Source: Mycobacterium sp. (GTDB taxonomy: Bacteria; Actinomycetota; Actinomycetes; Mycobacteriales; Mycobacteriaceae). From it: DNA of 64,000 nt. The stretch covers positions 1,309 to 65,308 of the forward strand of contig DATBFF010000222.1 of NCBI GenBank assembly GCA_036558625.1. The letters run 5' to 3'. The position numbers were made by a program, and so were the translations under genes. Positions 19,760-34,543 of the stretch are shown in pieces (within the stretch, counting starts at the first letter, position 1; every line of letters starts with the position of its first letter). Under the pieces are notes generated by a model. The model saw only the letters and a list, made by a program, of their open reading frames with translations. It had not been told where the DNA came from and made no database searches.

Positions 19760-19987
19760 GCCGGGCTTGCTGCCCGAATGTGCGGTTTCATACGAGACAC
19801 CCCGTGGCGGCCGTATGAATCCGCGCTCGCAGGGCATATGCCGTCCATTTCGAAACGGTGCTGCCGCGGTGGCCGCGTCCTGTCGCATGGCATGACTAGC
19901 AACTCACGGCCCCTACCATCAGTGCCGCAGGACAGTGCCGTTCGGGGTGAGCAAAGCGGAAGTCCAAGATCGCAACTGCCCGTGACG

Positions 19988-20038
19988 AAGTAGTACTGCT
20001 CGCAAACCGGGCGAAATTGCAGTAGTGCGCTACTGAGT
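19988..20038. promoter_or_regulatory. Candidate operator: AAGTAGTACTGC...TTGCAGTAGTGCGCTACTGAGT upstream of the lipase
   Basis: Inverted repeat CAGTAG-N4-CTACTG at 20020-20035; near-identical copy at 22201-22251. Confidence 0.7.
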
Positions 20039-20131
20039 TTGTTCCGCCACACCGAAGCGACGATCTCATCGTGGCCTCGACACCGGACGTCTTGGCCATC
20101 GTTTCACTAGGGAATGGATGGAGAAACGACG

Positions 20132-22081
20132 ATGAACAACGCAAAGTACATCGGTCGGGTCGGGGCATTGGCGGTCGCGTTAGGGGTGGGGATCGCTGTC
20201 GTCAGTACGCCTGCAGTGGCATCGGCCGAGCCGTCGGATTCCGGCACGAGTTCGTCGTCTAGTTCGTCGTCTAGTTCCGGCTCGACGTCTTCTGATTCGT
20301 CGTCAACGACGTCGTCGACGTCAGCGGGTGACCTCCGCGGTCGCCATCGGACTTCCCTGAAACCGCCCGGTTCGATGGCGGTAAGCGGTTCCGGCGCCGC
20401 AACGAGCTCGTCGACGGCCGCGTCTGATCGGCAGTCCAGGCGGAGGGGTGCAAACGTGCCCGGAGTGACAGTCGAAACTGGCGGACTGCAAACCAGCTCA
20501 CCGACAGTGCCGTCTCCGTCGGCGCCGCGACCTGTGGGGGCCGATGCCGGTCCGAGGTCGCGAACAACAGCTGCCATGAGGCCAGCACGGCTCAGCACGG
20601 CCTCACCGGCGTCTGACTATTCGGCGGCGGAGGCTACCCCGGCCCGGACCGCAGTGAACGCACCCGCTGCCGACACCACGGCGCGGGCCAATAGTTTGGA
20701 CGCCCGCGTCTTTGCGGACGTGGTGCAACCATCGGCGTTAACGACTGCGCCGGTTGCGTCGACCCTCGGCGCTGCTACACCAACGGCGATATCAGTCCCC
20801 GACTCCGCATCGGTGGTGCAGCAGCCCGCGAACGCGGTCCGTGCTCCGGCATCCGCCAATATCGTGTCGACCCTTGTCAGCGCGGTGCTCTCGCCGTTTG
20901 CCAATAACGCGCCGTCGATGCCTGCGCAGCCGCCGACAGTGTGGACGCTGCTGGCCTTCGCGCGCCGCGAATTTGAGCAGGCATTATCCGTCCCATCGCC
21001 GATCGTCAAACCGCTCGCCGGTCAAATCTCCGGCGGGCTCGTCTCCGAAACCCCCACGCTCGACGGCCAGTCGATCGACACGGCAATCACCGGCAACATC
21101 GGTGCGTCCACCGCGGCCCTAGCGGACCTGACGGTAAACGCACAGCCTGCCGCCAGCGTGGCGCCGGCCACATTCACCGGTGAACCATCGGTCGTATCCC
21201 ATGTCTTCACCGGGGTCTTCCGGGTTGTGCACGCAGCCGGCGACTTCTTGGGTGTAGATCTACGAATCCCGCTACTAAAGCTGCTGTCGAGTGAGCGGCC
21301 GCCGTGGTTTACGACGCTGGGACTAAACGTGCAACGCGGCGAGTTCGAGGGGATGCCCGTCTGGACACTGCAGTCCCGCGGAGCGACGTCGGAAGAGACA
21401 GTCGTGGCCATTCACGGGGGCGCGTTCATTGTGCAGCCCACCATCTTTCATTGGCTCGATTACGCTGCCATCGCTCGCGACACCGGCGCCACGTTGATCG
21501 TGCCGCTGTACCCACTGGTGCCACAGGGAGGCACCGCCGGCACGGTCGTGCCCGCGATCGCGGACTTGATCTCCTCGCAGATTGACCAACGCGGGGCCGA
21601 GAACGTCAGTGTGTTCGGCGATTCCGCTGGCGGCAATATGGCGCTGGCGGCGGTGCAGGAATTGGTGCGCCGCGGTGGCCCCGCGCCGTCGCACATGGTG
21701 TTGATTTCACCGCCGGTCGACGCCACCCTGAGCAACCCGGCCATTCAATTTGTAGACGACCCCCTCTTTTCGGGTCTCCTCCCGACTCTCCACAATATCG
21801 CCCAACAATGGGCCGGCGACCTCGACATAACCGATCCGCTGGTCAGTCCCCTCTTCGGGTCACTGGCGGGGCTTCCGCCGACCGCGGTCTACTTCGGAAG
21901 CCTGGAAATCCTCGCGCCCGATGGGCTTGTCCTCCAAGAAAAGGCCTTAGCGACGCCGGGCGCCGATTTCACCTTCATCCTGCGCAAGGGTGAAATACAC
22001 GACTGGGCGAGCGTCACTCTTTTGCCCGAGACGCGAGCTGTTCTCCCAGACATTTACCGACAGCTAGGCATCTCTGCGTGA
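20132..22081 (+). CDS. Secreted HSL-family lipase/esterase with a long Ser/Ala/Pro-rich N-terminal region
   Basis: Signal MNNAKYIGRVGALAVALGVG..ASA; catalytic domain IHGGAF, FGDSAGG, GEIHDW. Alternative ATG at 20114. Confidence 0.85.
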   Translation: MNNAKYIGRVGALAVALGVGIAVVSTPAVASAEPSDSGTSSSSSSSSSSGSTSSDSSSTTSSTSAGDLRGRHRTSLKPPGSMAVSGSGAATSSSTAASDRQSRRRGANVPGVTVETGGLQTSSPTVPSPSAPRPVGADAGPRSRTTAAMRPARLSTASPASDYSAAEATPARTAVNAPAADTTARANSLDARVFADVVQPSALTTAPVASTLGAATPTAISVPDSASVVQQPANAVRAPASANIVSTLVSAVLSPFANNAPSMPAQPPTVWTLLAFARREFEQALSVPSPIVKPLAGQISGGLVSETPTLDGQSIDTAITGNIGASTAALADLTVNAQPAASVAPATFTGEPSVVSHVFTGVFRVVHAAGDFLGVDLRIPLLKLLSSERPPWFTTLGLNVQRGEFEGMPVWTLQSRGATSEETVVAIHGGAFIVQPTIFHWLDYAAIARDTGATLIVPLYPLVPQGGTAGTVVPAIADLISSQIDQRGAENVSVFGDSAGGNMALAAVQELVRRGGPAPSHMVLISPPVDATLSNPAIQFVDDPLFSGLLPTLHNIAQQWAGDLDITDPLVSPLFGSLAGLPPTAVYFGSLEILAPDGLVLQEKALATPGADFTFILRKGEIHDWASVTLLPETRAVLPDIYRQLGISA

Positions 22082-22154
22082 GTGAGTCGCGCACCGCACT
22101 CGCTACAGAACCTGCCCGTCGAACTGCACTGCGCGCCGCAAAAGCCACAGATCA
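22082..22154 (-). pseudogene. 5' remnant (zinc ribbon) of a third cyclase-ATPase gene
   Basis: Closely matches 27051-27123; translates as ICGFCGAQCSSTGRFCSECGARLT; no in-frame start and no cyclase domain follows. Confidence 0.8.
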
Positions 22155-22200
22155 CAAGCGTCCCATTTCGAAACGGTGCTCTCACCGTCGCCGCGCGACT

Positions 22201-22251
22201 AAGTAGTACTGCGCGGGAATCGGGCGAGGTTGCAGTAGTGCACTACTGAGT
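22201..22251. promoter_or_regulatory. Second copy of the candidate operator, upstream of the PE-PPE gene
   Basis: Perfect 16-bp palindrome CAGTAGTGCACTACTG at 22233-22248, preceded by AAGTAGTACTGC. Confidence 0.7.
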
Positions 22252-22344
22252 GTGCCGCACCGCCCGGCGGCGAGGATTCCGATAGCGGAAGGCCTAACCC
22301 ACGGTGGGCTTGTGTTCGCCGGGACGGAGAGACGGAGGCCGGCG

Positions 22345-23949
22345 ATGAGAAGCGGGAAGCATGTTCGTCGCATCACCACACGGATGACGGTGGCGATCGC
22401 AACCGTGGTGCTGGTGGCGACGGCCACGGCCCTGTCGGGACTGCCGTCGAGGGTGTCGCCGCTTATTCAATTGTCCGCCGACTCGACCGCCTTGATCATG
22501 GGTGGGACCAGTGTCTCGACGCCCGACAACGCCTACATCGGAATTGTCATGAACCACTTCATCGCCCCGACGCATGCGGGCCAGACCATCACGCCGGTGG
22601 CGGTGACCACGCCCGAAGAGTTTTGGCCTGTCACCGGGATCGTCCGCCTCGGCGGAAGCGTGTTCGGCTCTCCGGGCATCTGGGGCCCCGGTAGCTCAGC
22701 GTGGCCGGATGAGCCGTGGTGGAAACTCTCGGGGCTCTTCGACCTCACCATAGATCGGTCAGTCCGGGCTGGGGTCGCCGATCTGGAGCAGGCGATGGCC
22801 AAGAACGCCAACGACGATCTGGTGATCTACGGCTACTCGCAAGGCGCGGTCATCGCTAACGCGGAGAAGCGCAAGCTCGCCGAACAGTACCCGGCAGGAA
22901 CCACCGCGCCCGACATCGACTTCGTGCTGAGCGGTGACCTCAATGTGCCTAACGGCGGTCTTCATGCCCGATTCCCGGGCCTTTACCTTCCGATCCTCAA
23001 TTGGACTTTCAACGGCCCCGAGCCGACCGATACCCAGTTCCACAGCGACGTCATCACTCGCCAGTACGACGGCTTGGCCGATTTCCCGTTGTATCCGCTC
23101 AACCTCGTCGCCGACCTGAACGCGCTTCTGGGCATCTTCTATGTGCACTTGAACGACTTCGACGTCAGCTTGGCTCCGGTTGCGTCGAAGTCGGCGGCGT
23201 TTCAGGGCACCCACGGCGATACAAGCTATTACTTCTTTCCGACTCAGGACTTACCGCTATTCGCACCGCTGCGCGCCCTGGGGGTGCCTGAGTCGGTGAT
23301 CGACGTGGTGGAGCCGTTCCTCCGGGTGCTCGTAGAACTGGGCTATGACCGCAGCATCCGGCCGTGGGTACCCACAGCTGCACGGCTGATCCCGAGGCTC
23401 GACCCGGCGAAGGTGATCACCGATCTCGTCAAGGCAATCGGCGAGGGCATCGACAACGCTCGAGCCCTCTTCGGGTTGCCCGCTCGGGTGAGCAAGTCCG
23501 CTCCGGCCACACTTGCGGCACCGGCCGAGGAAGCCGCGAGCACCGACATTTCGCGCCAGGTGACGTTGACGGACATCACGCCGCCGAACCTCCGGCGGAC
23601 TCAAACCGAACAGATGGGTTCGACGAAACGCGCGACCGGAAATGCGCCTGCGTCGGCGCTGACGGCACCTCGTGTTCCTTCGGCTTTGGCCCTCGCCTCG
23701 ACCACCGAGCGGGTGAAGCCGGCTTTGCGGCCAGTGACGCCTCGGCACATGGTGCGGGATTCGCTCGGCGCGACCGAGCAGCCACGCGGTTTTCCGCGCC
23801 GTCGCAATGGCCCGGCCACCTCGACCACCGGGACCACGGCTGCCGACCGAGTGACGTCAGCTGGATCGTCGTCAGCTTCTTCGCCGTTGGCTGGCAGAAC
23901 TTCCTCGGCCGGCGCTTCATCTGGCGGCGACGGCGGCGGTTCCAATTGA
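22345..23949 (+). CDS. PE-PPE domain serine hydrolase (signal peptide, no PE/PPE N-terminus)
   Basis: TALIMGGT, YGYSQGA, YDGLADFPLYPLNLVADLNALLGIFYVH, LVELGYDR; GGAGG before the ATG. Confidence 0.88.
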   Translation: MRSGKHVRRITTRMTVAIATVVLVATATALSGLPSRVSPLIQLSADSTALIMGGTSVSTPDNAYIGIVMNHFIAPTHAGQTITPVAVTTPEEFWPVTGIVRLGGSVFGSPGIWGPGSSAWPDEPWWKLSGLFDLTIDRSVRAGVADLEQAMAKNANDDLVIYGYSQGAVIANAEKRKLAEQYPAGTTAPDIDFVLSGDLNVPNGGLHARFPGLYLPILNWTFNGPEPTDTQFHSDVITRQYDGLADFPLYPLNLVADLNALLGIFYVHLNDFDVSLAPVASKSAAFQGTHGDTSYYFFPTQDLPLFAPLRALGVPESVIDVVEPFLRVLVELGYDRSIRPWVPTAARLIPRLDPAKVITDLVKAIGEGIDNARALFGLPARVSKSAPATLAAPAEEAASTDISRQVTLTDITPPNLRRTQTEQMGSTKRATGNAPASALTAPRVPSALALASTTERVKPALRPVTPRHMVRDSLGATEQPRGFPRRRNGPATSTTGTTAADRVTSAGSSSASSPLAGRTSSAGASSGGDGGGSN

Positions 23950-23950
23950 T

Positions 23951-26900
23951 TTAAGGGCGACCGTCGACCATCGCCTCGGCCCATTCGATGTGTCCTTCGA
24001 AGCCAAGCGATTTCGCCATGGCGCGGTAGCGATCCCGGTAATCCCGGTAGTCCATCTCATCGCCGCGGGCACGGGCTAGCAGGGCATGCAGCCGCAGCAG
24101 CCAGATGTCGCGCACAACTGACCCGTCGTCTGCTGGCGCGGCCGCTAGCCGCTCGATAGCGGCCTCGGCTTCGGCCACATCCGCCCCGGCGCCGCGTTCG
24201 AGCAGCGTCTCCACCAGGACACCCGTCGCAGGGATTCCCCACGAGAGCAGCTGGCCCTCGCGAACCAGGTCGTCGATGGCCGCGCGCATGAGCGCTATCG
24301 CCTCCTCGCGATCTCCACGCCGAGCCAACTCACGCCCCAAGTACGTGTTGACGGACCGTAACTCGCTCAGGTTGTGTCCCCGTCGTTCGAACATGTCGCT
24401 GATCTCCGCCAGCAGCTGCTGTCCGCGGTCTCGCTCGGCGTCCGTGTGGCGGTGCACTAGCGCAAGGGCCAGAATCGCCCGGTCGAAGGCCACCGCCATA
24501 TCATCACCGGATCGTTCGGCAATCCGTAGCGCATCCTCGATCTCGCGCAGGGCCGCATCATCAACAGCCAGTACGCCAAACGGTATTCCCGGGAAGTAGA
24601 CATAGGCGACAACCGTGGCATACGAAAACGGGTCGACGCTGCGGGCCATGGCCAGGCCGTGCCGCACGTCGTCGCGCCATCCGGGACGACCCAGGCAATA
24701 CCGGCCGATAGCCCTCGTCGTACAGGCGAGAGCTAGCGGAGACCCGATCATCAGGTTCCCTTTAGAAGGATCGCCGTCGGCGAGGTCGATGGCCCGCTGC
24801 GACCACCGCAGCACGTCGCACCACTCACCGCTGTGAGCCTTGGCGTAGATCACCGGGAAGGACAGCCCCACCGTCAGAGTCGCATCGCCGAGCGACTCGA
24901 CGAGCGCCCACGCTTCCGATGCCAGCTGCGACGCCTCGCGGTTCCGGCCTTGGAATCCTCGGTCTATCACCAGCCCTGCCATGCCGATGGCCAGTGAAGC
25001 CTTGTCCTCGGCGGCGGCGCACAACTCCCGCAATTCATCAATCCGATTGCCTGCCACGTTTGCGTGGAGTCTCCAGGCGATCCCGCACAGCATCGTCCGG
25101 GGTGCGACGCGCATCGCTGTCCGGTTCGCGTCTTCGGTTGGCAGCGTGTCGGCGATCGCTTGGGCGCGCTCCCAACTTTGTCGCGCCGCGGCGATGTCGC
25201 GGTATGTCGCCCACGTGGCGGCGCGCATATGCCACTGATACGCGGCGTGCAGATCCTCGGCGGCCTCCAGATGTTCGGCAATCAAAGCCGCGTTCTCCTC
25301 TGCCGCCGCGGGGTCACGTGATTCGATTGCGACCGCGACGCGTCGGTGGAGTTCGGCACGATCGGATTTGAGCTGGGATTCGTAGGCCACGGCGCGAATC
25401 AGCGGGTGCCTGAAGGCATATTCGGCGTGCGGGGTGAACCGCACCTGATCGATCAGTTCCGCGTCCAGCAATTCGTCAACCGCTGCGTCGACGCCCACCG
25501 CGGCGAGCAGCCGCGTGTCGAAGCGGGCCCCGATCACCGATGCCGCGTTCAATGTTCGCTTGGCCGGGGCGGTCAGCCGGTCGATGCGGGCCTCGATGGC
25601 CGCCTGCACCGTTTCCGGCACGGTCAGCTCGGCGACGTCGGCGCGACAAACGTAGTCGCCGTGCTCACCGGTCAGCACGCCGCGTTGTACCAATTCGCGC
25701 ACCATCTCCTCGGCGAAGAACGGATTGCCGGCGGCACGTTCGGCGATGATTGTCATAAGCTCGCCGACCGAGGGATCCGAACCCAGCAGCGCCGAGAGCA
25801 GGGCAGCGGTGTCCGAATCACCCAGTGGGGCAAGCGCGATCGTCTGACCGCCGTGCACCCGGGTCAGCGCGCCTTCATATTCGGGACGGTAAGTGATCAG
25901 CACCATCGACGGCGTACGCGGAATCACGGTGAGCAAGTCGGCCACCATCGACTCGCTGACCTCGTCGATCCAGTGGGTGTCCTCGATGATGTAGAGCACC
26001 GGTTCGGTGCGTGCCAGCGTCACCGAGTTCAGCAGCGCGGTTAACCGCCGCCGCCGCGCATCGGGGTCGATCTGGGGCAGCGCCACATCCGGATCGGCGA
26101 TGCCCAGCAGATCATCGAGCAGCAGCAGATCCTGCGGGTCGGCGTCGGGGACCTGTTCGTGGGCGCGAGCGCGGGCAGCTTGGTCATCGAGGTCGACGAC
26201 GCCGCTAGCCGTGCGCAGCAGCCGCGTGACCACGTCGAAGGCAATGTCGCTGGCGTGGGATTCGCAGTAGGTCCAATACACCTCGGCGCCGCGAGCCGCC
26301 GCCAATGCTGCGGCCTCGCGGGCCACCCGAGACTTGCCGATACCGGGCGGTCCCACCACATTCACCACGCCACCGTTACCGCCGGTCGTGGCGCCCACCA
26401 AAGCTTCGAGGGCGGCCATCTCCCAGCGCCGGCCGACCAGGCTGGCCTCGGTGCGCCCAATCAGCGCACGCCGCGGGCCGATGGCCACCAGCCGGCGAGC
26501 CCGCACCGGCTCATCGGAGCCCTTGATGCGCACCCACTGCGGGTCAGAGAGCACGACGCTGTCTTCGACCAGCCGGGCGGTCGACTCCGAGAGCATCACC
26601 GCGCCTGCGGGCGCTACCGATTCCATCCGCTGCGCGAACCCGACGTGCCGCCCGGTCGCTGCGTAGCCCAAGGATCCCGAGCCGATATCGCCGGCGATCA
26701 CGCGGCCCGAATTCAGCCCGACCCGTACTTGCAGCGCCACCTCGTCACGCCGCTGTATTTCGGTGGCCAACTGCTTCATCTCGTCCTGGATGGCCAAAGC
26801 GGCCACACATGCCCGAAAAGCGTGGTCCTCCAAGGCCGTTGGGGCGCCGAATAGCGCCATCACCCCATCGCCGGTGTACTCGACGCGCCCGCCGCCGTAG

Positions 26901-27220
26901 CGCTCGACCACTGCCGCCGACCGCTCCACGAGTTCGCCCATGATTTCGCGGTACCGCTCCGAATCGAGGATTGCCGCGAGGTCCATGGAGCGCACCACAT
27001 CGGCGAAAAGCACTGTCACCTGTTTGTACTCAGCCGAACGGCTCGCCTGTGTGAGTCGCGCACCGCACTCGCTACAGTACTTGCCCGTCGAACTTGAACG
27101 TGCGCCGCAGGAACCACAGATCAGCCGCGTCGCGGCCAGTCCATCGCCACCATCCCGGCTGGCACCCACGGCACCTATCGTTTCACCGCTGATCAGCGAT
27201 GTCTGCCGTATCGCCGCCAT
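23951..27220 (-). CDS. Zinc ribbon - class III nucleotide cyclase - AAA ATPase - helical/TPR-like protein (copy A)
   Basis: CGSC..CSEC, VTVLFADV, EYTGDG, RVGLNSG, VGFAQRMES, GPPGIGKS, IIEDTHWID. ORF track extends to 27229. Confidence 0.9.
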   Translation of the reverse strand: MAAIRQTSLISGETIGAVGASRDGGDGLAATRLICGSCGARSSSTGKYCSECGARLTQASRSAEYKQVTVLFADVVRSMDLAAILDSERYREIMGELVERSAAVVERYGGGRVEYTGDGVMALFGAPTALEDHAFRACVAALAIQDEMKQLATEIQRRDEVALQVRVGLNSGRVIAGDIGSGSLGYAATGRHVGFAQRMESVAPAGAVMLSESTARLVEDSVVLSDPQWVRIKGSDEPVRARRLVAIGPRRALIGRTEASLVGRRWEMAALEALVGATTGGNGGVVNVVGPPGIGKSRVAREAAALAAARGAEVYWTYCESHASDIAFDVVTRLLRTASGVVDLDDQAARARAHEQVPDADPQDLLLLDDLLGIADPDVALPQIDPDARRRRLTALLNSVTLARTEPVLYIIEDTHWIDEVSESMVADLLTVIPRTPSMVLITYRPEYEGALTRVHGGQTIALAPLGDSDTAALLSALLGSDPSVGELMTIIAERAAGNPFFAEEMVRELVQRGVLTGEHGDYVCRADVAELTVPETVQAAIEARIDRLTAPAKRTLNAASVIGARFDTRLLAAVGVDAAVDELLDAELIDQVRFTPHAEYAFRHPLIRAVAYESQLKSDRAELHRRVAVAIESRDPAAAEENAALIAEHLEAAEDLHAAYQWHMRAATWATYRDIAAARQSWERAQAIADTLPTEDANRTAMRVAPRTMLCGIAWRLHANVAGNRIDELRELCAAAEDKASLAIGMAGLVIDRGFQGRNREASQLASEAWALVESLGDATLTVGLSFPVIYAKAHSGEWCDVLRWSQRAIDLADGDPSKGNLMIGSPLALACTTRAIGRYCLGRPGWRDDVRHGLAMARSVDPFSYATVVAYVYFPGIPFGVLAVDDAALREIEDALRIAERSGDDMAVAFDRAILALALVHRHTDAERDRGQQLLAEISDMFERRGHNLSELRSVNTYLGRELARRGDREEAIALMRAAIDDLVREGQLLSWGIPATGVLVETLLERGAGADVAEAEAAIERLAAAPADDGSVVRDIWLLRLHALLARARGDEMDYRDYRDRYRAMAKSLGFEGHIEWAEAMVDGRP

Positions 27221-27462
27221 TCGACACAAACTTTCGAGGCTCTCATGCCGGGGTGCACCCGGACTTCCTCTCGCGCCGGGGCGCTTGCGGCAAAGAAGCT
27301 GCTGACCGCTGCAGCGAGGCGCTCCAGATGACCCTCGAGTGGAGATGTCAAGGTGCCAAAGCCTGCGGATCGGCAGGCAACCGCTCAGAGCGGTCCGCCA
27401 GCCGAGTCACGATGCGGCTCTGCATCACCGATAGCCGATCCGCTAAACCGGTGATGCCCCGA

Positions 27463-30400
27463 CTATTTACCGCCCTCGGTCATGTTTTCGGCCCAGTCGA
27501 TGTGTCCTTCGAAGCCGAGCGATTTCGCCATCGCGCGGTAGCGATCCCGGTAATCCCGGTAATTCATCTCATCGCCACGAGCCCGAGAGAGCAGCGCGCG
27601 CAGCCGCAGCAAGGTTATTGCGAGCACCGCCGAATCATGCTCTGCGGCAACGTTCGCCATCCAGTCGATCGCCTCTTGAGCTTCGGTCAGATCGCCTTCG
27701 GCGGCGCGGTCCAGCAGCGTCTCCATCAAGACACCGGTGGCCCACACGCCATAGAAGGGGTATCCCTGGCGCAGCTCGTCGACGGCTTGACGCATCGCCG
27801 CTATGGCAGCATCGTGGTCGCCGCGCCTGGCCGTTTCGCGGGCGGCCCACACGTCGGTGACCGGTAGGAGGAAGAAGATCTGCCTGCGCAGCCATAGCTC
27901 GCGGGTCTGCATCATCAGTTCAAGCCCGCGGTGACGGTCGGCCGCGTCGTCCTGACTCAGTAGGCTGACAGCCAACGTGTAACCGGCCAAGCCCAGCGCT
28001 CGATCGCTACTGGCTCTTTGGGCGGTCTGCACCGCATCCTCGCTGGCGCGCAGCAGCGAGTCATCAGCCCGAAGCACCCCGTATTGCATCGCGAAACCGT
28101 AGGTCCAGGCGATGGCCCCGGAGAGGGTTTCCGCGTTGCTGCGTCGGGCCATCGCGACGGCGTCGTGGAGGTCTTCACGCCATCCGGCACGGCCCAGACA
28201 CCACCGAGCGGTGCCGCGCCATCCCAACGCGATCGCGAGCGGTGATGCCACGCCGTAGCCGGCGCCCTTGACGGGGTCACCGGCTGCCAGGTCGACCATG
28301 GTCTGCGACCACCGCAAGACTTCGCCGAATTCCAGGACACCGTGCCAGCTGCAGAAGGTTACGGCCGCCAACCCCATGGTCGGGGTGGGATCGCCGATCG
28401 ACTCGAGTAGCGCCATCTGTTGGGATGACAACTGCGCGGCCTCACGCGCGCGCCCCGCGTACATGAGCTCGGTGGCGGGCCCGCTCATGCCGATGGCCAG
28501 CGAGACCTTGTCCCCAGCCGCAATGCACAACTCCTGCAGCTCCGCGAACCGGCCCCGGCTCTCGTGGATCGCTCGCGCTTGAAAGTCGGTGGCACACAGC
28601 ATGGTGCGGGGAGCGATCCGCATCGACAGTTGGTCGGGGTCGTCGGCAGGCAGCAGATCGGCGATCCGGAGTGCACGCTCCCAGCTGCTCCGGGCGGCGT
28701 TCAGATCGCGGTTGGTGGACCACGCACCGGCACGCATATGCCAGCCATACGCCGCGTGCAGTTCACCCGCAGCCTGCAGATGTTCGGCGATCAGCGCAGC
28801 GTTCTCCTCGACTGACCCCGGCGCACGCTCTTGAATTGCGGCGGCCAGACGTCGGTGCCACTCGGCGCGATCGGAATTCAGCTGTGATTCGTAGGCCACC
28901 GCGCGGATCAGCGGGTGCCGGAACGCGTACTCGGCACTTGCGGTGAAGCGCACCTGCTCGATCAGCTCCGCGTCGAGCAGCTCATCGAACATCGCATCGC
29001 TGCCCAACGCGGACAGCAGCTCCGCCGCGAATCGGACTCCAATCACCGACGCCGCGTTCAACGTCCGTCTGGCAGGGGCGCTCAGCCGGTCGATGCGCGC
29101 GTCAATGGCCGCCGCCACAGTGGCGGGCACGCTCACCTCGGCGACATCCTCGCGACAGGTGTGGCCGCCGCGTTCACCGGCGAGTACGCCGCGCTGGACC
29201 ATCTCGCGCACCATCTCCTCGGCGAAAAACGGGTTCCCGGCGGCCCGCTCGGCGATGACCGCCACGAGTTCGCGAACCGAGGGATCCGACCCCAGCAGTT
29301 CACCGAGCAGCGCGTTGATGTCCGTATCGCCCAGTGGGCCAAGCGCTATCGTCTGCGCACCATGCACCCGCAGCAGCGCGCCCTCGTACTCGGGGCGGGA
29401 GGTGATCAACACCATCGACGCCGTGTGCGGGATCACGGCCAGGAAGTCGGCCAGCATTGACTCGCTGACCGCATCGATCCAGTGTGCATCCTCGATGATG
29501 AACAGCGCCGGTTTGCTTCGGGCCAGCGCGCGCGTGTTGATCAGTGCGGTCAACCTGCGCCGTCGGACGTCCGGGTCCATCTGGGGCAGAGACACATTCG
29601 GGTCGGCGATGCCCAGCAGGTCATCGAACAGGAGCAGATCTTGCGGATCGGCATCCGGAATCTGCTGTCGCACTCTTGCGCGGGCGGCTTGGTCGTCGAG
29701 GTCGGTCAAATCGTTGCCTGCGCGCAGCAGCCTGGTGACGGCATGGAATGGAATGTCGCGAGCATGCGATTCGCAGAACCCCCAGAACACCTCCGCCCCA
29801 CGACTGGCAGCCAAGGCGGCGGACTCCCGGGCCAATCGGCTTTTGCCGATGCCCGGCGGTCCCACCACATTCACCACACCACCACGCCGACCAATCGCGC
29901 GCTCCAGCATCGCGTCGAGAGCCGCCATTTCCCAATGCCGACCGACCAGGCTCGCCTCGGTGCGTCTGACCAAACCATCGCGCGGGTTGATCGACAGCAG
30001 CCGTTGCGCGCGAATCGGCCCGTCGGCGCCTTTGATATGCACCCATTCCGGTTCAGCCAAAATGACGGTGTGCTCGACCAGCTGCGCGGTCGCCTCCGAA
30101 AGCATCACCCCAGCCGGCGGCGCCGCAGACTCCATCCGCTGTGCAAACCCGACCGTCTCGCCCGTCGCGGCGTACCTGGGCGATCCCGTACCGACCTGAC
30201 CGACGATCACCCGACCCGAATTCAGGCCGACTCGCAACTCCAGGGCCACGCCATCGGTGCACTGAACCTTCTTAGCCAAACCATCTGCTTCTTCCTGGAT
30301 AGCCAGGGCGGCCAGGCATGCCCGGAAAGCATGATCCTCCAAGGCAATCGGGGCGCCGAACAACACCATCAATCCGTCGCCGGTGAACTCCACGGTCCCG

Positions 30401-30729
30401 CCGCCGTAGCGGCGCGCCACCGCGGCCGAGCGCTCCACCAGCTCAGTGATGACCTCCCGCAGCCGCTCGATATCCAGGACGGCTGCAAGGTCCATCGAAC
30501 GCACCACATCGGCGAACAACACCGTCACCTGCTTGTACTCCGACGAACGGGTTGCCTGTGTGAGTTGCGAACCGCACTCGCTACAGAACTTGCCCGTCGA
30601 ACTCGAATGCGCGCCGCAGGAACCGCAGATCAGCCCTGTCGCGGCGAGTCCTTCGCCGCCATCCCGGCTGGCACCCACGGCACTTATCGTTTCACCGCTG
30701 GACAGTGATATCTGGCGTATCGCCGCCAT
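27463..30729 (-). CDS. Zinc ribbon - class III nucleotide cyclase - AAA ATPase - helical/TPR-like protein (copy B)
   Basis: Same architecture: VTVLFADV, EFTGDG, VGFAQRMES, GPPGIGKS, IIEDAHWID; shared C-terminus YRDYRDRYRAMAKSLGFEGHI. ORF track extends to 30738. Confidence 0.9.
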   Translation of the reverse strand: MAAIRQISLSSGETISAVGASRDGGEGLAATGLICGSCGAHSSSTGKFCSECGSQLTQATRSSEYKQVTVLFADVVRSMDLAAVLDIERLREVITELVERSAAVARRYGGGTVEFTGDGLMVLFGAPIALEDHAFRACLAALAIQEEADGLAKKVQCTDGVALELRVGLNSGRVIVGQVGTGSPRYAATGETVGFAQRMESAAPPAGVMLSEATAQLVEHTVILAEPEWVHIKGADGPIRAQRLLSINPRDGLVRRTEASLVGRHWEMAALDAMLERAIGRRGGVVNVVGPPGIGKSRLARESAALAASRGAEVFWGFCESHARDIPFHAVTRLLRAGNDLTDLDDQAARARVRQQIPDADPQDLLLFDDLLGIADPNVSLPQMDPDVRRRRLTALINTRALARSKPALFIIEDAHWIDAVSESMLADFLAVIPHTASMVLITSRPEYEGALLRVHGAQTIALGPLGDTDINALLGELLGSDPSVRELVAVIAERAAGNPFFAEEMVREMVQRGVLAGERGGHTCREDVAEVSVPATVAAAIDARIDRLSAPARRTLNAASVIGVRFAAELLSALGSDAMFDELLDAELIEQVRFTASAEYAFRHPLIRAVAYESQLNSDRAEWHRRLAAAIQERAPGSVEENAALIAEHLQAAGELHAAYGWHMRAGAWSTNRDLNAARSSWERALRIADLLPADDPDQLSMRIAPRTMLCATDFQARAIHESRGRFAELQELCIAAGDKVSLAIGMSGPATELMYAGRAREAAQLSSQQMALLESIGDPTPTMGLAAVTFCSWHGVLEFGEVLRWSQTMVDLAAGDPVKGAGYGVASPLAIALGWRGTARWCLGRAGWREDLHDAVAMARRSNAETLSGAIAWTYGFAMQYGVLRADDSLLRASEDAVQTAQRASSDRALGLAGYTLAVSLLSQDDAADRHRGLELMMQTRELWLRRQIFFLLPVTDVWAARETARRGDHDAAIAAMRQAVDELRQGYPFYGVWATGVLMETLLDRAAEGDLTEAQEAIDWMANVAAEHDSAVLAITLLRLRALLSRARGDEMNYRDYRDRYRAMAKSLGFEGHIDWAENMTEGGK

Positions 30730-30831
30730 CTTCGACACGAACTTTCCAGATTCTCGTAAGTGGTCTGAATCGAGACCGATCGTTTCGAGTGTTCAGATCG
30801 ATCGGCCGATCCGGACACGGTGCCAGCTGCC

Positions 30832-32286
30832 TCAGCCCGCTGATAGCTTCAGCACCCGATGATTGTGGTTGTCGGCTATATACACGTTGCCTGCACCATC
30901 TACTGCTAAGCCGATGGGACGGTTGAGTCCGGCGATGGGCAGGTCCCTCTGAGGTGCCGTCCCGCCGCGCAATATCAGCATCCGACTCGGTAAGGAATTG
31001 CTGTTGTCGTACGTACCCACGCCGTCGGCCACGTAGACGTTTCCGGAGTCATCTACGGCCACACCCGTCGGTTTGTGAAGTCCGGTGAAGGGAAGTTCGA
31101 TCTGCGGAGCCCTTCCACGTGACAACATCAACACCCGTGAATGGCGTTCGTCGCTGACGTATACGTCGCCCCTACTGGTCAGAGCTATCCAGGACGGCCA
31201 ATCCAGGCCGGTGAACGGTAGTTCGTCCTGCGGGCCTTTTCCCGCAGTTAATTTGAGTACGCGGTTGTTGCCCACGTCGACGACGAAAATATCGCCGGCA
31301 TCATCGAGGGCGATCCCGGCGGGATAGTTGAGCCCCGCGAACGGCAGTTCGATCTGCGGGCCTGATCCGCCCGGCAACTCGAGAACACGGTTGTTGTTGC
31401 AATCGGTGACATACACATTGCCCGCGTCATCCACCGCCACGCCATTTGGGTTGCTGAGTCCCGTGAACGCGAGCTCGGTCTGTGGTCCTGAGCCGCCAGC
31501 CAACTTCAACACCCGCTTGCTTGCAAAGTCTGTCACGTAGATGTTGCCTGCCCGATCCACGGCGACTCCGACGGGGTCAGTCAGGCCAGTGATCGGCAGC
31601 TCGGTAACCTTCGGCTCAGATAACTTGTTGTTGGACGGCTCTTTTCGTGCGGTACTGACGACCGCCACGACTGATACAGCGATGATGAGTAGAACGATTG
31701 CCGAAGCTGCCGCCAATGCGCTGCGACGACGCCACCATGGGCGCGTCGGGACCGAAGGACCCGAATGGTCTGCTTGCCCAGAAGCTGGGACTGGTGGCGC
31801 CGCACGATCTGCCGATCCGCCGGATTTGGCTCGCTCAACATCGGTGCGCGGGATGTTTTCAGAACCGGTGCCGGCTGACGGACGAGAGCCGACGAAGGTC
31901 TTGACCGCAGTCGCAAGTCGCTCGAGATGGCTTTCAAGTGGCGGAGTCATCGCATCAAGCCAGTGGGGTGTCCCGAGGAAGTACTCCAGGCCGCGCTCGG
32001 GGGCAACATCTTCGATGCGGAACGGGATCAGCACAGTTTCAGCGTTCACTGCTCGTTCGACCTCACGTTTGATCTGGGGCGAAGCGTTGGCGTGCTGACT
32101 GAACACAAGCACCATGACGCGGGACGAACGGATCGCATCGACGATGGCCTCTCCCCAGTCTTGGCCAGGTACGACGTCGCGCGGCGCGATCCAGCAGCGA
32201 ATGCCGTCGGCTTCCAAAGTGGCGCATACCGCATCGGCTGCCGGCTTGTCGTGGTGCGAGTAGCTGATGAACACGTCATGTGCCAC
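30832..32286 (-). CDS. TIR domain - transmembrane helix - six NHL-repeat beta-propeller protein
   Basis: TIR: DVFISYSHHD..CWIAPRDVVPGQDW..IKREV; TM ALAAASAIVLLIIAVSVVAVV after RPWWRRR; six LPFTGL..P.GVAVD..GNVYV.D..N.RVLKL repeats. Confidence 0.9.
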   Translation of the reverse strand: MAHDVFISYSHHDKPAADAVCATLEADGIRCWIAPRDVVPGQDWGEAIVDAIRSSRVMVLVFSQHANASPQIKREVERAVNAETVLIPFRIEDVAPERGLEYFLGTPHWLDAMTPPLESHLERLATAVKTFVGSRPSAGTGSENIPRTDVERAKSGGSADRAAPPVPASGQADHSGPSVPTRPWWRRRSALAAASAIVLLIIAVSVVAVVSTARKEPSNNKLSEPKVTELPITGLTDPVGVAVDRAGNIYVTDFASKRVLKLAGGSGPQTELAFTGLSNPNGVAVDDAGNVYVTDCNNNRVLELPGGSGPQIELPFAGLNYPAGIALDDAGDIFVVDVGNNRVLKLTAGKGPQDELPFTGLDWPSWIALTSRGDVYVSDERHSRVLMLSRGRAPQIELPFTGLHKPTGVAVDDSGNVYVADGVGTYDNSNSLPSRMLILRGGTAPQRDLPIAGLNRPIGLAVDGAGNVYIADNHNHRVLKLSAG

Positions 32287-32514
32287 GGCTGAATCCCCCG
32301 TTTGTAGCTTCGCCTCACACTTGTCGCGACCACACAGCGGTCACTCAGGAAGCTAACGCATAGGGGCCGCTACCGGCGCGAAACTTGACGATCATTCCGA
32401 TCAGGCGAGACGGCTGCGAAAGCCTCAGATCGTCGTTATCGTTCTGTCCTCTACGACGAGAGCACGGGCGCGGGCCGCGAGCTCTGGGCGACATGGAATG
32501 TGATCAGGAGTGAC

Positions 32515-33213
32515 ATGGGAAACGATCTAGGTCGCATTCGGCTACACGACCCCAAGAGTCGTGAGTTTGAATTCCCGGCGCGCAAGGCCACCGCCGGTCT
32601 GAGCGTGCGACATCGACTTGACGCGCGGCACGTCGATCAGTTTTTTCTCTCGGGCTGTGTGGGCTATTCGGGCACGAACATGCTCAACACACGACCGGCG
32701 CGCTCCAGCCGCCAGAAGTTCAACTCGATCGCCCACCAGAAGGTCACAACTCGCTACCTGAAGAACAGCGATGGCACCTACAATTACAGTGCCGCAACGA
32801 AGTTCGACCCCTTCGACTGGACATATCCGCCAACCGACGAGGGTTCTAGTGCCCTGGGACTGATGAAGTTCTGGCAGAAATCCGGCGTTATCTCCGGCTA
32901 CGACTGGACTTTCACGTTCGATCAATTCCTGGCCGCACTGCAACGACAGCCTGTGCTCGTAGGAACCATGTGGTACGACGACATGATGTCCACCGACTCG
33001 GCCGGCGTCATCCATTCATCGGCGTCAGGCAAAGGCGGTGGGCACGAGTATCTGGCCAACGCGATCCTGTGGGGTAAGCGGCTGATCGGCTATGAGCAGT
33101 CATGGGGCGAGCATCCCCGTGGGTTTTCACCCACGTTCTACATGTCTTTCGATCTTGCTGAGGAACTGATCATCCATCAGAAAGGTGACGTAGCAGTTCC
33201 AAGGTTTCAGTGA
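32515..33213 (+). CDS. Papain-like (C1-type) cysteine peptidase, putative
   Basis: DQFFLSGCVG (Gln/Cys), GGGHEY (His), QSWG in place of NSWG; AGGAG before the ATG; no signal peptide. Alternative GTG at 32500. Confidence 0.72.
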   Translation: MGNDLGRIRLHDPKSREFEFPARKATAGLSVRHRLDARHVDQFFLSGCVGYSGTNMLNTRPARSSRQKFNSIAHQKVTTRYLKNSDGTYNYSAATKFDPFDWTYPPTDEGSSALGLMKFWQKSGVISGYDWTFTFDQFLAALQRQPVLVGTMWYDDMMSTDSAGVIHSSASGKGGGHEYLANAILWGKRLIGYEQSWGEHPRGFSPTFYMSFDLAEELIIHQKGDVAVPRFQ

Positions 33214-33220
33214 ACTGGCA

Positions 33221-34543
33221 GTGACTGCGTCGGGGGACTCAACCGCAAGCGCCGGCCGGATCGCTGCGCTCGCGTTCCCGGCTCTCGGTGTGCTGGCTGC
33301 CGAACCTTTGTATCTACTCTTCGACACCGCCATCGTCGGGCGCCTCGGTGCACTGGCGCTCGCCGGTCTGGCGATCGGCGGCCTGATCGTCAACATGGTC
33401 GGGTCCGGTCTGGTCTTCCTGTCGTACGGCACGACCGCGCGCTCGGCGCGACAATACGGAGCGGGCGACCGCGCGTCGGCCGTTGGTGAAGGCGTGCAGG
33501 CCACCTGGCTAGCCCTAGCGCTCGGCGTGCTGTTCGTCATCGTCATCCAGCTGGCGGCGGTGCCCATCGTGTCGGCGATCGCCTCGCAGGCCGACATAGC
33601 CGGCGAGGCATTGTCGTGGCTGCGGATAGCCGTGTTCGGCGCCCCGGCGATGCTGATGTCGCTGGCGGGCAACGGCTGGATGCGCGGCGTGCAGGACACC
33701 GTGCGGCCGCTTTGGTATGTGGTCATCGGATTCACGGTGTCAGCGGTGCTGTGCCCGCTGCTGGTCTACGGGTGGCTTGGGCTGCCGCGCTGGGAATTGG
33801 CCGGTTCCGCGGTGGCGAACCTGGTAGGTCAGTGGGTCGCCGCGCTACTGTTCGCCTGGGCGCTGATACGCGAGCGGGCTCCGCTCGGCGTCGACGTGCA
33901 GGTGTTGCGCGGTCAGGTCGTCATGGGCCGCGACCTGTTCGTGCGCACGCTCGCCTTCCAAGCGTGCTACCTGTCCGCGGCGGCCGTCGCCGCCAGGTTC
34001 GGTGCGGCAGCTGTGGCCGCACACCAAATAGCACTGCAGTTGTGGAATTTCCTTGCGCTCGTGCTGGATTCGCTTGCGATCGCCGCCCAGGCGCTCGTCG
34101 GTGCCGCGCTCGGCGCCAGGCTTGCCGAGCACGCGAAGTCTGTGGCGTGGCGGGTGACCGCCTACTCCGCTGCCGCGGCCGCGGTCCTCGCGGCGCTGCT
34201 AGCCGCCGGCGCGTCGGTGTTTCCGCACTTGTTCACCGACGACCGCTCCGTGCTCCACGCGGTCGACGTGCCGTGGTGGTTCCTCGTCGCCCAATTGCCA
34301 GTCGCAGGAGTGGTTTTCGGTCTCGACGGCGTGCTGTTGGGCGCCGGGGACGCAAAGTTCATGCGCAACGCGACGGTGATCAGCGCGCTGATCGGTTTTC
34401 TGCCGCTGATCTGGCTGTCACTGGTGTTCGGATGGGGGTTGGCAGGCATCTGGTCGGGTCTCTCGACGTTCATCGCGCTGCGGTTGGTGTTCGTCGGGTG
34501 GCGTGCGCTGTCGGGCCGCTGGACCGTGCTGGGCACCGGCTAG
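33221..34543 (+). CDS. dinF: MATE family efflux protein DinF (Rv2836c-like)
   Basis: LAFPALGVLAAEPLYLLFDTAIVGRLG, GNGWMRGVQDT, AAHQIALQLW. Confidence 0.92.
   Translation: MTASGDSTASAGRIAALAFPALGVLAAEPLYLLFDTAIVGRLGALALAGLAIGGLIVNMVGSGLVFLSYGTTARSARQYGAGDRASAVGEGVQATWLALALGVLFVIVIQLAAVPIVSAIASQADIAGEALSWLRIAVFGAPAMLMSLAGNGWMRGVQDTVRPLWYVVIGFTVSAVLCPLLVYGWLGLPRWELAGSAVANLVGQWVAALLFAWALIRERAPLGVDVQVLRGQVVMGRDLFVRTLAFQACYLSAAAVAARFGAAAVAAHQIALQLWNFLALVLDSLAIAAQALVGAALGARLAEHAKSVAWRVTAYSAAAAAVLAALLAAGASVFPHLFTDDRSVLHAVDVPWWFLVAQLPVAGVVFGLDGVLLGAGDAKFMRNATVISALIGFLPLIWLSLVFGWGLAGIWSGLSTFIALRLVFVGWRALSGRWTVLGTG

Follow-up and report, generated by a model that had tools for sequence, protein, structure and literature searches.

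What connects the genes that separate nrnA from dinF in a soil Mycobacterium? The locus lies in a 64,000-nucleotide stretch of DNA (the window) from a 4.5-Mb MAG, and an initial annotation had read a TIR-TM-NHL gene, two cyclase-ATPase genes and a peptidase gene as one candidate signalling or defence system. All four ORFs were confirmed. We favour, with about even confidence, a recent lineage-specific mosaic island of self-contained, probably autonomous immune-receptor-like genes, not one dedicated four-gene system. A Toll-like membrane protein, predicted to carry a TIR domain of NAD-cleaving type inside and a propeller outside, here adjoins two NLR-like cyclases in one soil mycobacterium island.

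A lineage-specific island between nrnA and dinF

The mosaic island (19760–33220, 13.4 kb, unstranded) contains a LipY-like lipase, a PE-PPE protein, a cyclase relic, cycA, cycB, the TIR-TM-NHL gene and the peptidase. In at least eight same-genus relatives nrnA and dinF abut, the nrnA end lying within ~30–80 bp of the dinF start, which confirms that the block interrupts the pair. We looked for a tRNA or integrase in the island and found none. GC3 is graded, from 0.79–0.87 in core genes through 0.77 in cycA and cycB, 0.72 in the lipase and 0.69 in the peptidase to 0.67 in the TIR-NHL gene. The nrnA/dinF block is a lineage-specific island that was assembled recently. Within it, a third cyclase gene persists as a relic (22081–22161, minus strand), truncated at the lipase stop, whose translation retains the Zn-ribbon codons alone (TLVICGFCGAQCSSTGRFCSECGARLT); an 87-nt repeat around it (22076–22162, family D4) has 80–83% DNA identity to the 5′ ends of cycA and cycB.

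Could the MAG contig have been misjoined at the repeated Zn-ribbon segment, such that the TIR-NHL gene does not truly lie beside cycB? In other soil runs the unitig graph does branch once, at a 31-mer (30512–30542) common to another cyclase paralogue. On either branch, however, 30543–30738 still codes for the N-terminal 65 residues of a cyclase-family protein, including the start and the Zn-ribbon. An independent unitig shows this coding segment to be contiguous with the spacer and the TIR stop, reproducing the cycB start, the intergenic region and the TIR stop (30683–30833) with 0 differences. Unitigs of four other soil metagenome runs match pieces of the region with 0 differences, including the segment from the TIR 5′ end through the peptidase to dinF (31847–33697), and other junctions were recovered equally exactly. 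We consider a chimeric contig highly improbable.

The peptidase belongs to a mycobacteriophage family

The peptidase gene (32500–33213, plus strand, 237 aa) is divergent from the TIR gene; its true start is likely the ATG at 32515, and its stop lies 7 bp ahead of dinF. A Pfam search of the protein gave no match; it matches phrog_16701, annotated as "peptidase," at E 5e-57, and its AlphaFold model (pLDDT 86) resembles papain-family enzymes, namely xylellain (3ois, E 1e-8) and cathepsins. The Gln, Cys, His and Trp of papain-family C1 enzymes are present as Gln47, Cys53 (codon 32656–32658), His182 (codon 33043–33045) and Trp202, all invariant in the family alignment. The initial call of a papain-like peptidase is correct. 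Unlike C1 peptidases, it has Gln200 at the usual Asn position (EQSWG), and Gln predominates there across the family alignment. Mycobacteriophage genes annotated as peptidase or cysteine protease (phrog_16701; DrLupo gp97 and Barnyard gp94) encode proteins 38–50% identical to it, with about 50% for those of DrLupo and Barnyard. The island protein differs from phage and C1 peptidases in being chromosomal and stand-alone, without a prodomain or signal peptide. Its homologues are located in phage or unrelated contexts, which speaks against its place in the proposed system, and recurrence with TIR or cyclase genes was never found at other loci. The peptidase is a mycobacteriophage-family gene that landed beside dinF, outside the TIR/cyclase module.

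cycA and cycB are NLR-like cyclase-STAND proteins

As assigned with Pfam, cycA (23951–27229, minus strand, 1092 aa) carries a Zn-ribbon (27062–27118), a class III cyclase (26516–27037), a STAND NTPase of AAA_16 type (25898–26440) and a TPR-like solenoid (about 23972–25372). For cycB (27463–30738, minus strand, 1091 aa), Pfam, an AF2 model and Foldseek give a Zn-ribbon (30571–30627), a class III cyclase (30025–30546) and a STAND NTPase (29407–29949), with a C-terminal part made of a winged helix and then an all-alpha TPR-like solenoid (27481–28881). Both proteins match Pfam Guanylate_cyc (E 2e-24 and 4e-23) and AAA_16 (E 2e-23 and 3e-23). Residues 620–1086 of cycB form helical hairpins in the AF2 model (pLDDT 85–95), and its best Foldseek matches are the STAND-TPR protein 6mfv, Avs3 (8dgc), CED-4, Apaf-1 and MalT (PDB entries matched: 6mfv, 8dgc, 4m9s, 3shf and 8bob). 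The C-terminus of the cyclase proteins is all-alpha, with none of the SLOG, CNB or Rossmann domains for which it was checked; a LuxR/GerE HTH was likewise not found there, by Pfam or in the model. The "cyclase-ATPases" are NLR-like proteins in which a Zn-ribbon and a class III cyclase precede the STAND NTPase and an all-helical TPR solenoid. Neither they nor the TIR protein possess a domain suited to detecting what the other makes. Since a nucleotide-signal-reading domain is absent from the cyclase proteins and from the TIR protein alike, the suggestion that the cyclase-ATPases respond to a nucleotide signal is structurally baseless.

The cyclase pocket of both proteins is, as aligned, non-canonical (Glu/Ala; Asn to Gly), in agreement with the initial annotation. 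In cycB the metal residues Asp77 and Asp121 are retained, as is Arg201; in the alignment Glu117 corresponds to the guanylyl-cyclase Glu, Ala190 occupies the Asp/Cys site, and the catalytic Asn has given way to Gly197. The pocket residues of cycA are the same.

This genome carries 10 members of the cyclase-STAND family, which reaches up to about 24 matches elsewhere and includes tandem arrays and pseudogene pieces. cycA and cycB share 64–65% identity, less than cycB shares with a member located on a different contig (71%); they therefore do not stem from a recent duplication in place. The N-terminal class III cyclase is the most conserved part (0.76–0.82), followed by the NTPase (0.55–0.73) and the distal solenoid (0.44–0.52). 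The expansion of the family, its tandem arrays and pseudogenes, the pairing of a variable sensor with a conserved output, and the Avs/NLR-like folds all fit immune-type evolution.

The TIR-TM-NHL protein

The TIR-TM-NHL gene (30832–32286, minus strand, 484 aa) matches Pfam TIR_2 (E 8e-25) and NHL (E 5e-43, five matched stretches); the domains first assigned to this protein and to the cyclase-ATPases are right. A cytoplasmic TIR domain (31912–32286) is followed by a linker, a single TM helix (31657–31719; residues ~189–211, with RPWWRRR just before it) and an extracytoplasmic PknD-type NHL propeller (30835–31611), six-bladed by homology to PknD (1rwi). TIR residues including Glu75 (codon 32062–32064) are invariant in the five family members compared. 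Among full-length homologues the TIR domain is 81–88% conserved and the NHL part 37–58%; by this comparison the ectodomain is fast-evolving and the TIR domain highly conserved. The genome holds 13 TIR genes and 10 cyclase genes. A second TIR-TM-NHL, of a different TIR clade, is isolated on contig C101, with no cyclase and no large STAND-sized ORF in its vicinity, and several TIR ORFs of ~1,370–1,540 aa match in size the TIR-nSTAND1-WD40 giants confirmed at related loci.

Linkage of TIR and cyclase-STAND genes

It is possible that TIR-TM-NHL, cycB and cycA constitute an operon-like unit, with an outside cue read by the NHL part converging on a cytosolic cue read by the TPR part and the outputs acting jointly by protein contact (for example, TIR with Zn-ribbon or cyclase), as in fused TIR-cyclase-STAND proteins. 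The three genes do lie on one strand, and the gaps, given initially as ~100 and ~240 bp, measure 93 bp from the TIR-TM-NHL stop to the cycB start (30739–30831, minus strand) and 233 bp between cycB and cycA (27230–27462, minus strand). A scan of the 93-bp spacer for terminator-like sites found none; co-transcription of the TIR-NHL gene and cycB is compatible with this arrangement and would favour coupling. The 233-bp spacer holds one weak terminator-like hairpin (27315–27298), which is not decisive since the count of such sites across the region does not exceed shuffle expectation. At other loci, coupling is favoured by TIR-cyclase-AAA_16 (STAND) fusion proteins, which form at least 17 clusters, and by a TIR-FHA gene in G019 situated between two cyclase genes, with a 4-bp overlap with the upstream one and a 45-bp gap to the other. 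The closest TIR relative in the genus (78%) is flanked by a short STAND and decayed cyclase genes, 67–74% identical to cycA, hinting that the linkage is ancestral, not accidental.

Several observations argue against coupling, however. The neighbourhood search suggested in the initial annotation found no cyclase or peptidase at seven other TIR-TM-NHL loci (0/7; 45–61% identity where aligned full-length), no TIR gene adjoins the closest cycB orthologue (76%), and the fused and FHA-linked TIRs represent a different TIR clade (27–30% identity). cycA and cycB lack a TIR domain for homotypic contact as well as a nucleotide-sensor domain, and the GC3 of the TIR-NHL gene (0.67) versus the cyclases (0.77) implies separate acquisition. 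We regard coupling as a tentative reading. The four genes do not form a conserved system; a defined system of this kind is further disfavoured by the other cyclase clusters of the genome, which adjoin the housekeeping genes gcvP, valS and rne and have no common partner gene. Among the parts of the original proposal that are supported is the linkage of TIR to the cyclase-ATPase family, which extends to other loci.

Could these instead be chance neighbours in ordinary signalling, the cyclase-ATPases serving as cAMP/cGMP regulators like the Rv0386 group and TIR-NHL as a PknD-like envelope sensor, unlinked and without a conflict function? With 13 TIR and 10 cyclase genes in 4.5 Mb, some adjacency is expected; moreover, the cyclase clusters are dispersed among core genes, the NHL propeller is of the PknD sensor type and the locus fits no known defence-system model. 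However, only ~0.06 immediate TIR-cyclase neighbours are expected within this genome alone. Among the matches listed for 30 genomes, 4 immediate neighbours or fusions were observed versus 0.44 expected (without this genome, 3 versus 0.375, P~0.007), in a post hoc statistic that assumes random gene order; this excess also speaks for coupling. The missing LuxR HTH, the immune-type evolution of the family and the giant-sized TIR ORFs count against ordinary signalling as well. Chance co-location within an expanded cyclase family, the caveat of the initial annotation itself, is a live possibility, and the full account of unlinked genes without a conflict function seems to us unlikely. Some STAND NTPase, of four different types, lies within ~4 kb at 6/9 TIR-TM-X loci. 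The affinity between TIR and cyclase-STAND genes in the genus is loose but genuine.

A model of autonomous receptors

If the island is a mosaic of self-contained genes, as we favour, how might they act? Each protein here probably has its own sensor and output and works alone. cycA and cycB would be single-gene NLR-like sensors, with the TPR solenoid as variable sensor, the STAND NTPase as switch and the N-terminal cyclase as output. If they work like Avs, Apaf-1 and MalT-type STANDs, ligand binding would lead to nucleotide exchange and oligomerisation, which would pair the cyclase domains as catalytic dimers and yield a cyclic nucleotide. Given a Glu/Ala pocket with Gly in place of the catalytic Asn, the predicted product is probably not plain cAMP. 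TIR-TM-NHL would be a type-II single-pass receptor, its propeller facing outward and its TIR, with Glu at the catalytic position, inward; clustering outside would drive TIR assembly and NAD+ cleavage or signalling. Since TIR and cyclase-STAND modules have been joined repeatedly in the genus, both outputs probably serve one type of response, for which conflict with phages or other invaders is the likeliest candidate. As no PADLOC system model fits the locus, we infer this defence role from architecture only.

Comparison with known systems

Like Avs/AVAST and other NLR-like STANDs (Apaf-1/CED-4/MalT-type), cycA and cycB place an N-terminal output ahead of a STAND NTPase and a winged helix and end in a TPR-type solenoid, and, as with Avs, the family is multi-copy, its sensor variable and its output conserved. 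In contrast to Avs, a class III cyclase after a Zn-ribbon takes the place of a nuclease, protease or SIR2 as output, and the PADLOC match is faint (Avs1b alone, E 1.4e-3).

Rv0386, Rv1358 and Rv2488c of M. tuberculosis consist of a class III cyclase, then an AAA_16/NB-ARC-type ATPase and helical repeats, in about 1,100 aa. Proteins of the Rv0386 type have non-canonical substrate-defining residues and form a family expanded in mycobacteria; the M. tuberculosis relatives are known for cAMP signalling, not defence. cycA and cycB share their domain order, size and non-canonical residues but have an N-terminal Zn-ribbon and no C-terminal LuxR/GerE HTH, and the cycB pocket (Glu117/Ala190, Gly for the catalytic Asn) is distinct. 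A survey of these M. tuberculosis cyclase-ATPase-HTH proteins is available (PMC2447327).

The mismatch with Pycsar and Thoeris noted at the outset holds. As in Pycsar, a class III-type cyclase adjoins a TIR-containing membrane protein, and the cyclase domains match PycC models weakly (E 2.5e-14), covering the generic cyclase fold only; the TIR protein here, however, lacks a cyclic-nucleotide-binding domain, and its cyclase neighbour is one domain of a 1,091-aa STAND protein. As in Thoeris, a TIR with Glu at the catalytic position adjoins large proteins, but ThsB matches are sub-threshold (Pfam ThsB_TIR 20.1 bits versus a cut-off of 21.2; PADLOC ThsB E 8e-4), the neighbours lack SLOG, Macro or other cADPR-sensor domains, and this TIR is membrane-anchored with an ectodomain.

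Finally, TIR-TM-NHL resembles M. tuberculosis PknD in its six-bladed NHL sensor propeller (1rwi, E 8e-68), single TM helix and cytoplasmic N-terminal signalling domain, which is a TIR domain where PknD has a Ser/Thr kinase. A kinase/TIR swap is also found at the N-terminus of the cyclase-STAND family.

A lineage-specific island between nrnA and dinF

The source genome is a soil metagenome assembly of 4.46 Mb in 264 contigs. All four ORFs named in the initial annotation are present as it described them. Three lie on the minus strand, encoding the cyclase-ATPases cycA (23951-27229, 1092 aa) and cycB (27463-30738, 1091 aa) and the membrane protein TIR-TM-NHL (30832-32286, 484 aa); the fourth, a peptidase gene (32500-33213, 237 aa), is divergent on the plus strand. 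The intergenic gaps, first put at about 100 and 240 bp, measure 93 bp between TIR-TM-NHL and cycB and 233 bp between cycB and cycA. A gene for a LipY-like lipase (20114-22081) and one for a PE-PPE protein (22252-23949) lie on one flank of the four ORFs, and on the other flank dinF starts 7 bp past the end of the peptidase ORF. As proposed, the block interrupts a conserved gene pair: since nrnA stands directly before dinF in at least eight genomes of the same genus, window positions ~19760-33220 represent a lineage-specific insertion of 13.4 kb. Neither a tRNA nor an integrase was found in this island.

The island is a mosaic that was built up stepwise. GC3 is 0.79-0.87 in core genes, 0.77 in cycA, cycB and the PE-PPE gene, 0.72 in the lipase gene, 0.69 in the peptidase gene and 0.67 in the TIR-TM-NHL gene. 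A third cyclase gene copy persists as a relic at 22081-22161(-); it breaks off at the lipase stop codon, and its Zn-ribbon codons (TLVICGFCGAQCSSTGRFCSECGARLT) alone remain. The 87-nt repeat around it is 80-83% identical in DNA sequence to the 5′ ends of cycA and cycB.

A TIR protein with a receptor-like topology

TIR-TM-NHL has the architecture originally assigned to it: an N-terminal TIR_2 domain, a Pro/Ser-rich linker, the sequence RPWWRRR, one TM helix (residues 189-211) and an NHL propeller of the six-bladed type, which matches the sensor domain of M. tuberculosis PknD (1rwi, E 8e-68). Since basic residues (RRR) precede the TM helix, the TIR domain is predicted to lie inside the cell and the propeller outside. 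The protein thus resembles PknD in having an extracytoplasmic propeller behind a single TM helix and differs in that TIR_2 replaces the cytoplasmic Ser/Thr kinase. Pfam, NCBIfam and PADLOC scans returned TIR and NHL alone, with no cyclic-nucleotide-binding domain and no Pkinase.

We found no full-length orthologue in 40 relatives, where the matches were to NHL domains of PknD-like kinases. In a large protein database, TIR and NHL occur together in roughly two dozen proteins, about ten of which align over their full length at 45-61% identity; in the full-length homologues of loci L013-L019, identity to the window's protein is 81-88% in the TIR domain and 37-58% in the NHL domain. In two relatives within the genus, a TIR domain (78% and 68% identical) and the TM helix are combined with unrelated ectodomains. 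These soil-metagenome and mycobacterial proteins make up a TIR-TM-variable-ectodomain family (TIR-TM-X), defined by a conserved TIR and TM helix and by differing ectodomains. Glu75, which occupies the position of the catalytic residue in TIR NADases, does not vary among five TIR-TM-X proteins and aligns with the Glu of a second TIR clade; by this conserved residue, TIR-TM-NHL is a putative NADase. Our literature search found no paper in which NHL repeats are joined to a TIR domain in bacteria or the TIR-TM-X family is described.

The same genome encodes a second TIR-TM-NHL protein of 595 aa (C101:11019-12806(-)). As its TIR belongs to a different clade, that of TIR-cyclase fusions, the architecture arose twice in one genome. 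The surroundings of this copy contain no large STAND-sized ORF and no cyclase.

Two side observations concern TIR abundance. With 13 TIR_2 matches (on C29, C58, C78, C79, C101, C109, C147, C166, C210, C238 and other contigs), the genome tops the 151 sampled from the genus, the majority of which have 0-2; several of these matches fall in open frames of ~1,370-1,540 aa, likened to TIR-STAND-WD40 proteins by size alone. On the soil metagenome contigs carrying L013-L019, TIR-TM-NHL genes repeatedly occur in tandem pairs and beside TIR-nSTAND1-WD40 giants.

Non-canonical cyclases on a STAND scaffold

In both cycA and cycB, a CxxC...CxxC Zn-ribbon precedes a class III cyclase domain, which Pfam detects as Guanylate_cyc, and a STAND NTPase, detected as AAA_16; the long C-terminal region that follows gives no Pfam match. 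In the AlphaFold (AF2) model of cycB, the NTPase and a winged helix are followed by a confident all-helical hairpin solenoid (residues 620-1086), and Foldseek groups the model with the STAND-TPR protein 6mfv, Avs3 (8dgc, E 4.5e-8), CED-4, Apaf-1, MalT and plant NLRs. Searches of the cyclase proteins, including the cycB model, for a LuxR HTH, a Rossmann/SLOG fold or a cNMP-binding (CNB) domain found none. GerE, which is readily picked up in neighbouring AAA_16 proteins of other loci, had no match in the C-terminal 472 aa even at E<=10. Since a C-terminal LuxR/GerE HTH is absent, the two proteins fall outside the Rv0386-type cyclase-ATPase-LuxR group of M. tuberculosis, which they resemble in combining a class III cyclase with an AAA/NB-ARC ATPase.

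Fungal rhodopsin-guanylyl cyclases give the best alignment to the cyclase domain, which is non-canonical, as had been suspected. In the alignment to 6ao9, the metal-binding residues Asp77 and Asp121 are retained, as is Arg201, but the substrate Lys is replaced by Glu117 (which aligns with the guanylyl-cyclase Glu), the Asp/Cys by Ala190 and the catalytic transition-state Asn by Gly197. Unlike a canonical class III adenylyl cyclase, cycB therefore retains neither the substrate Lys/Asp pair nor the transition-state Asn. The Asn-to-Gly and Asp-to-Ala/Thr changes occur in nearly all of 26 paralogues examined, and the Gly is invariant in a separate alignment of 30 sequences; Glu in place of Lys is found only in a subclade that includes cycA and cycB. 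Per-column identity is highest in the cyclase domain (0.76-0.82) and lowest in the distal solenoid (0.44-0.52).

The family is expanded, with 10 copies in the window's own genome (arrays of two and four, plus singles) and up to about 24 matches in other species, where there are tandem arrays and many broken copies. cycB is more similar to a copy on another contig (71% identity) than to cycA (64-65%). Because the copies elsewhere in the genome adjoin gcvP, valS and rne, the family lacks a constant partner gene. Recurrence with cyclase clusters was also considered for the lipase and PE-PPE genes and rejected, their paralogues being on other contigs.

Comparison with known systems

None of PADLOC, NCBIfam and Pfam assigned the genes to a known defence system, and a match to the NCBIfam model "TOMM kinase/cyclase fusion" (241 bits against a cut-off of 706) was dismissed as shared cyclase-STAND architecture only. 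The initial annotation had set the locus apart from Pycsar and Thoeris, and we agree. It is not Pycsar, because the TIR-TM-NHL effector has no cNMP-binding domain; PycC models, of a stand-alone pyrimidine cyclase, match the cyclase domains (E 2.5e-14 and 3.7e-12), which here are embedded in STAND proteins. It is not Thoeris, since ThsB matches are below the cut-off and no sensor-bearing effector is present, the neighbours having no SLOG, Macro or similar sensor domain.

With Avs/AVAST proteins, cycB shares a STAND NTPase, a C-terminal TPR-like solenoid and an N-terminal effector; what sets it apart is an unusual effector, the cyclase. Avs1b was the only Avs family model to match (E 1.4e-3), on one of the two cyclase proteins, and the locus is not a catalogued Avs type. 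Among the systems compared, its predicted mode of action comes closest to that of an Avs/NLR-type STAND with a cyclase output, placed beside a PknD-like receptor in which a TIR domain stands in for the kinase.

Do the four genes form one system?

The initial annotation had joined the TIR protein, both cyclases and the peptidase into one candidate signalling or defence system, a proposal that the gene neighbourhoods argue against. Seven other TIR-TM-NHL loci have neither a cyclase nor a copy of this peptidase gene, and the closest orthologue of cycB (76%) has no TIR neighbour. When the best 30 TIR loci of the genus were searched with 1.5-kb flanks, a cyclase was present at the window's own locus only; the closest listed TIR among them (68%, in G158) is flanked by a sulfatase gene and tig-clpP. 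The further suggestion that the cyclases answer a nucleotide signal lacks structural support, as neither protein class has a domain that could sense the other's product. The best-supported interpretation is that the locus is an insertion hotspot that has gathered autonomous immune-receptor-like genes.

The peptidase itself was correctly called papain-like. Pfam gave no match to the 237-aa protein; its structural model (pLDDT 86) matches papain-family xylellain and cathepsins at a Foldseek probability of 1.0. Gln47, Cys53, His182 and Trp202 are shared by each of 30 homologues, and Gln200 occupies the Asn position of the papain constellation Gln...Cys...His...(Asn)-Ser-Trp. There is also a match to phrog_16701 (E 5e-57), and the protein shares 38-50% identity with the products of right-arm genes labelled "peptidase/cysteine protease" in DrLupo, Barnyard and other mycobacteriophages. 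Homologues occur in phage-like or unrelated bacterial contexts, a distant copy is found in just two of 40 relatives, and none of the seven other TIR-TM-NHL loci has one. The peptidase is thus outside any recurrent module.

For TIR and cyclase domains, associations of several kinds were found elsewhere. A genus relative encodes a 1309-aa TIR_2-cyclase-AAA_16 fusion (L090, G123:C1, 2800-6729(-)), a member of a ~1,300-aa family with at least 17 clusters in public data (P0244-P0259 and P0261; 69-84% identical), hosted by soil mycobacterial genomes and metagenomes; we found no description of these fusions in the literature. Parallel Ser/Thr kinase-cyclase-AAA_16 fusions of ~1,365 aa form at least 13 clusters and occur in tandem in G129:C16. 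(Several cyclase frames of 1,350-1,480 aa in relatives were discarded as spurious GC-rich upstream extensions, the G129 proteins being the only true kinase fusions.) At L041 (G019:C212, 4438-11965(-)), a 357-aa TIR-FHA protein, whose TIR is from the same clade as the fused TIRs, is encoded between two cyclase-STAND genes; its start overlaps the upstream cyclase stop by 4 bp (ATGA) and the next cyclase gene is 45 bp away, making this locus a candidate compact module.

Another relative, G076, has a probably frameshifted TIR-cyclase-STAND fusion and, at L092 (G076:C6, 243-15135), the TIR-TM-X protein closest to the window's in the genus (TIR 78%), with a different ectodomain. A 446-aa AAA_16/NB-ARC STAND gene follows it after 170 bp, a paralogous 465-aa STAND lies on the opposite side, and fragmented cyclase pseudogenes 67-74% identical to cycA flank both sides, so that L092 resembles a related island undergoing decay. 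This ancestral-looking association, together with the short same-strand spacer in the window, favours true coupling of TIR-TM-NHL, cycB and cycA as a three-gene unit, a possible arrangement that we nonetheless consider less likely than not.

A STAND NTPase lies within ~4 kb at six of nine TIR-TM-X loci, and these STANDs are of four types: cyclase-AAA_16, TIR-nSTAND1-WD40, AAA_16-TPR-GerE and short NB-ARC-like. Among the matches listed for 30 genomes, TIR and cyclase genes were immediate neighbours at least four times against 0.44 expected (at least three against 0.375, P~0.007, when the window's own genome is excluded) and showed a weak excess within 5 kb (at least six against 2.7), in a post hoc comparison that assumes random gene order and ignores clustering of accessory genes.

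How might such genes work?

If the hotspot has gathered autonomous receptors, each protein type would carry its own sensor and output. In the cyclase-STANDs, the TPR solenoid would be the sensor, the NTPase the switch and the cyclase the output, whereas TIR-TM-NHL would be Toll-like, sensing through the propeller and responding through the TIR domain. By analogy with related families, oligomerisation may drive cyclase dimerisation and clustering may drive TIR NADase activity; the identity of the nucleotide product would likewise be predicted from those families. TIR, Ser/Thr kinase and FHA domains appear to be interchangeable in two settings, the PknD-type receptor frame and the N terminus of cyclase-STANDs, in agreement with the domain syntax of STAND-based conflict systems (PMC7159879, PMC8195603). 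This swapping suggests a shared type of response and not a fixed operon.

The innate immune receptors of animals and plants are evolutionarily related to the TIR and NLR-like proteins of bacteria. To our knowledge, nearly all characterised bacterial examples detect infection from within the cell, and phage defence in mycobacteria has been little explored. The Toll-like topology, with a conserved TIR inside, a single membrane pass and a fast-diverging propeller outside, would mark the family as a candidate for bacterial surface sensing. It is conceivable, but we think improbable, that TIR-TM-X proteins are transmembrane pattern-recognition receptors that sense extracytoplasmic events such as phage adsorption or envelope attack and are partnered with cytosolic NLR-like STANDs (in this locus, cyclase-STANDs) in a two-tier immunity of surface and cytosol. 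Such a system would be analogous to animal TLRs plus NLRs and would combine NAD-derived and cyclic-nucleotide outputs. If instead the genes are independent, the locus still exemplifies the accumulation of immune-like genes in one insertion hotspot. The cyclase-STAND family, with its TIR- or kinase-fused variants, offers a testable example of second-messenger synthesis under the control of NLR-type switches in mycobacteria and bears on the role of many "orphan" mycobacterial cyclases.

Assembly and flanking sequences

Most junctions of the island were reproduced by unitigs from four other soil runs. Because an exact 31-mer at 30512-30542, in the segment coding for the Zn-ribbon, is common to another cyclase paralogue, the assembly graphs of other soil runs branch there, and short-read assemblies of the family may become chimeric at this point. 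Whichever branch is followed, the TIR gene still adjoins the 5′ end of a cyclase-family gene. A search for RNA evidence found the sequence in soil DNA runs only, and promoter and terminator scans gave counts at or below shuffle expectation and were uninformative. Finally, ~230 bp upstream of the lipase gene (19830-20064) resemble the sequence upstream of the PE-PPE gene (22148-22277) at 75-76% identity. The repeat contains the palindrome CAGTAGTGC(G/A)CTACTG, its second copy, on the PE-PPE side, abuts the cyclase relic, and the repeated stretch may be a shared regulatory region.
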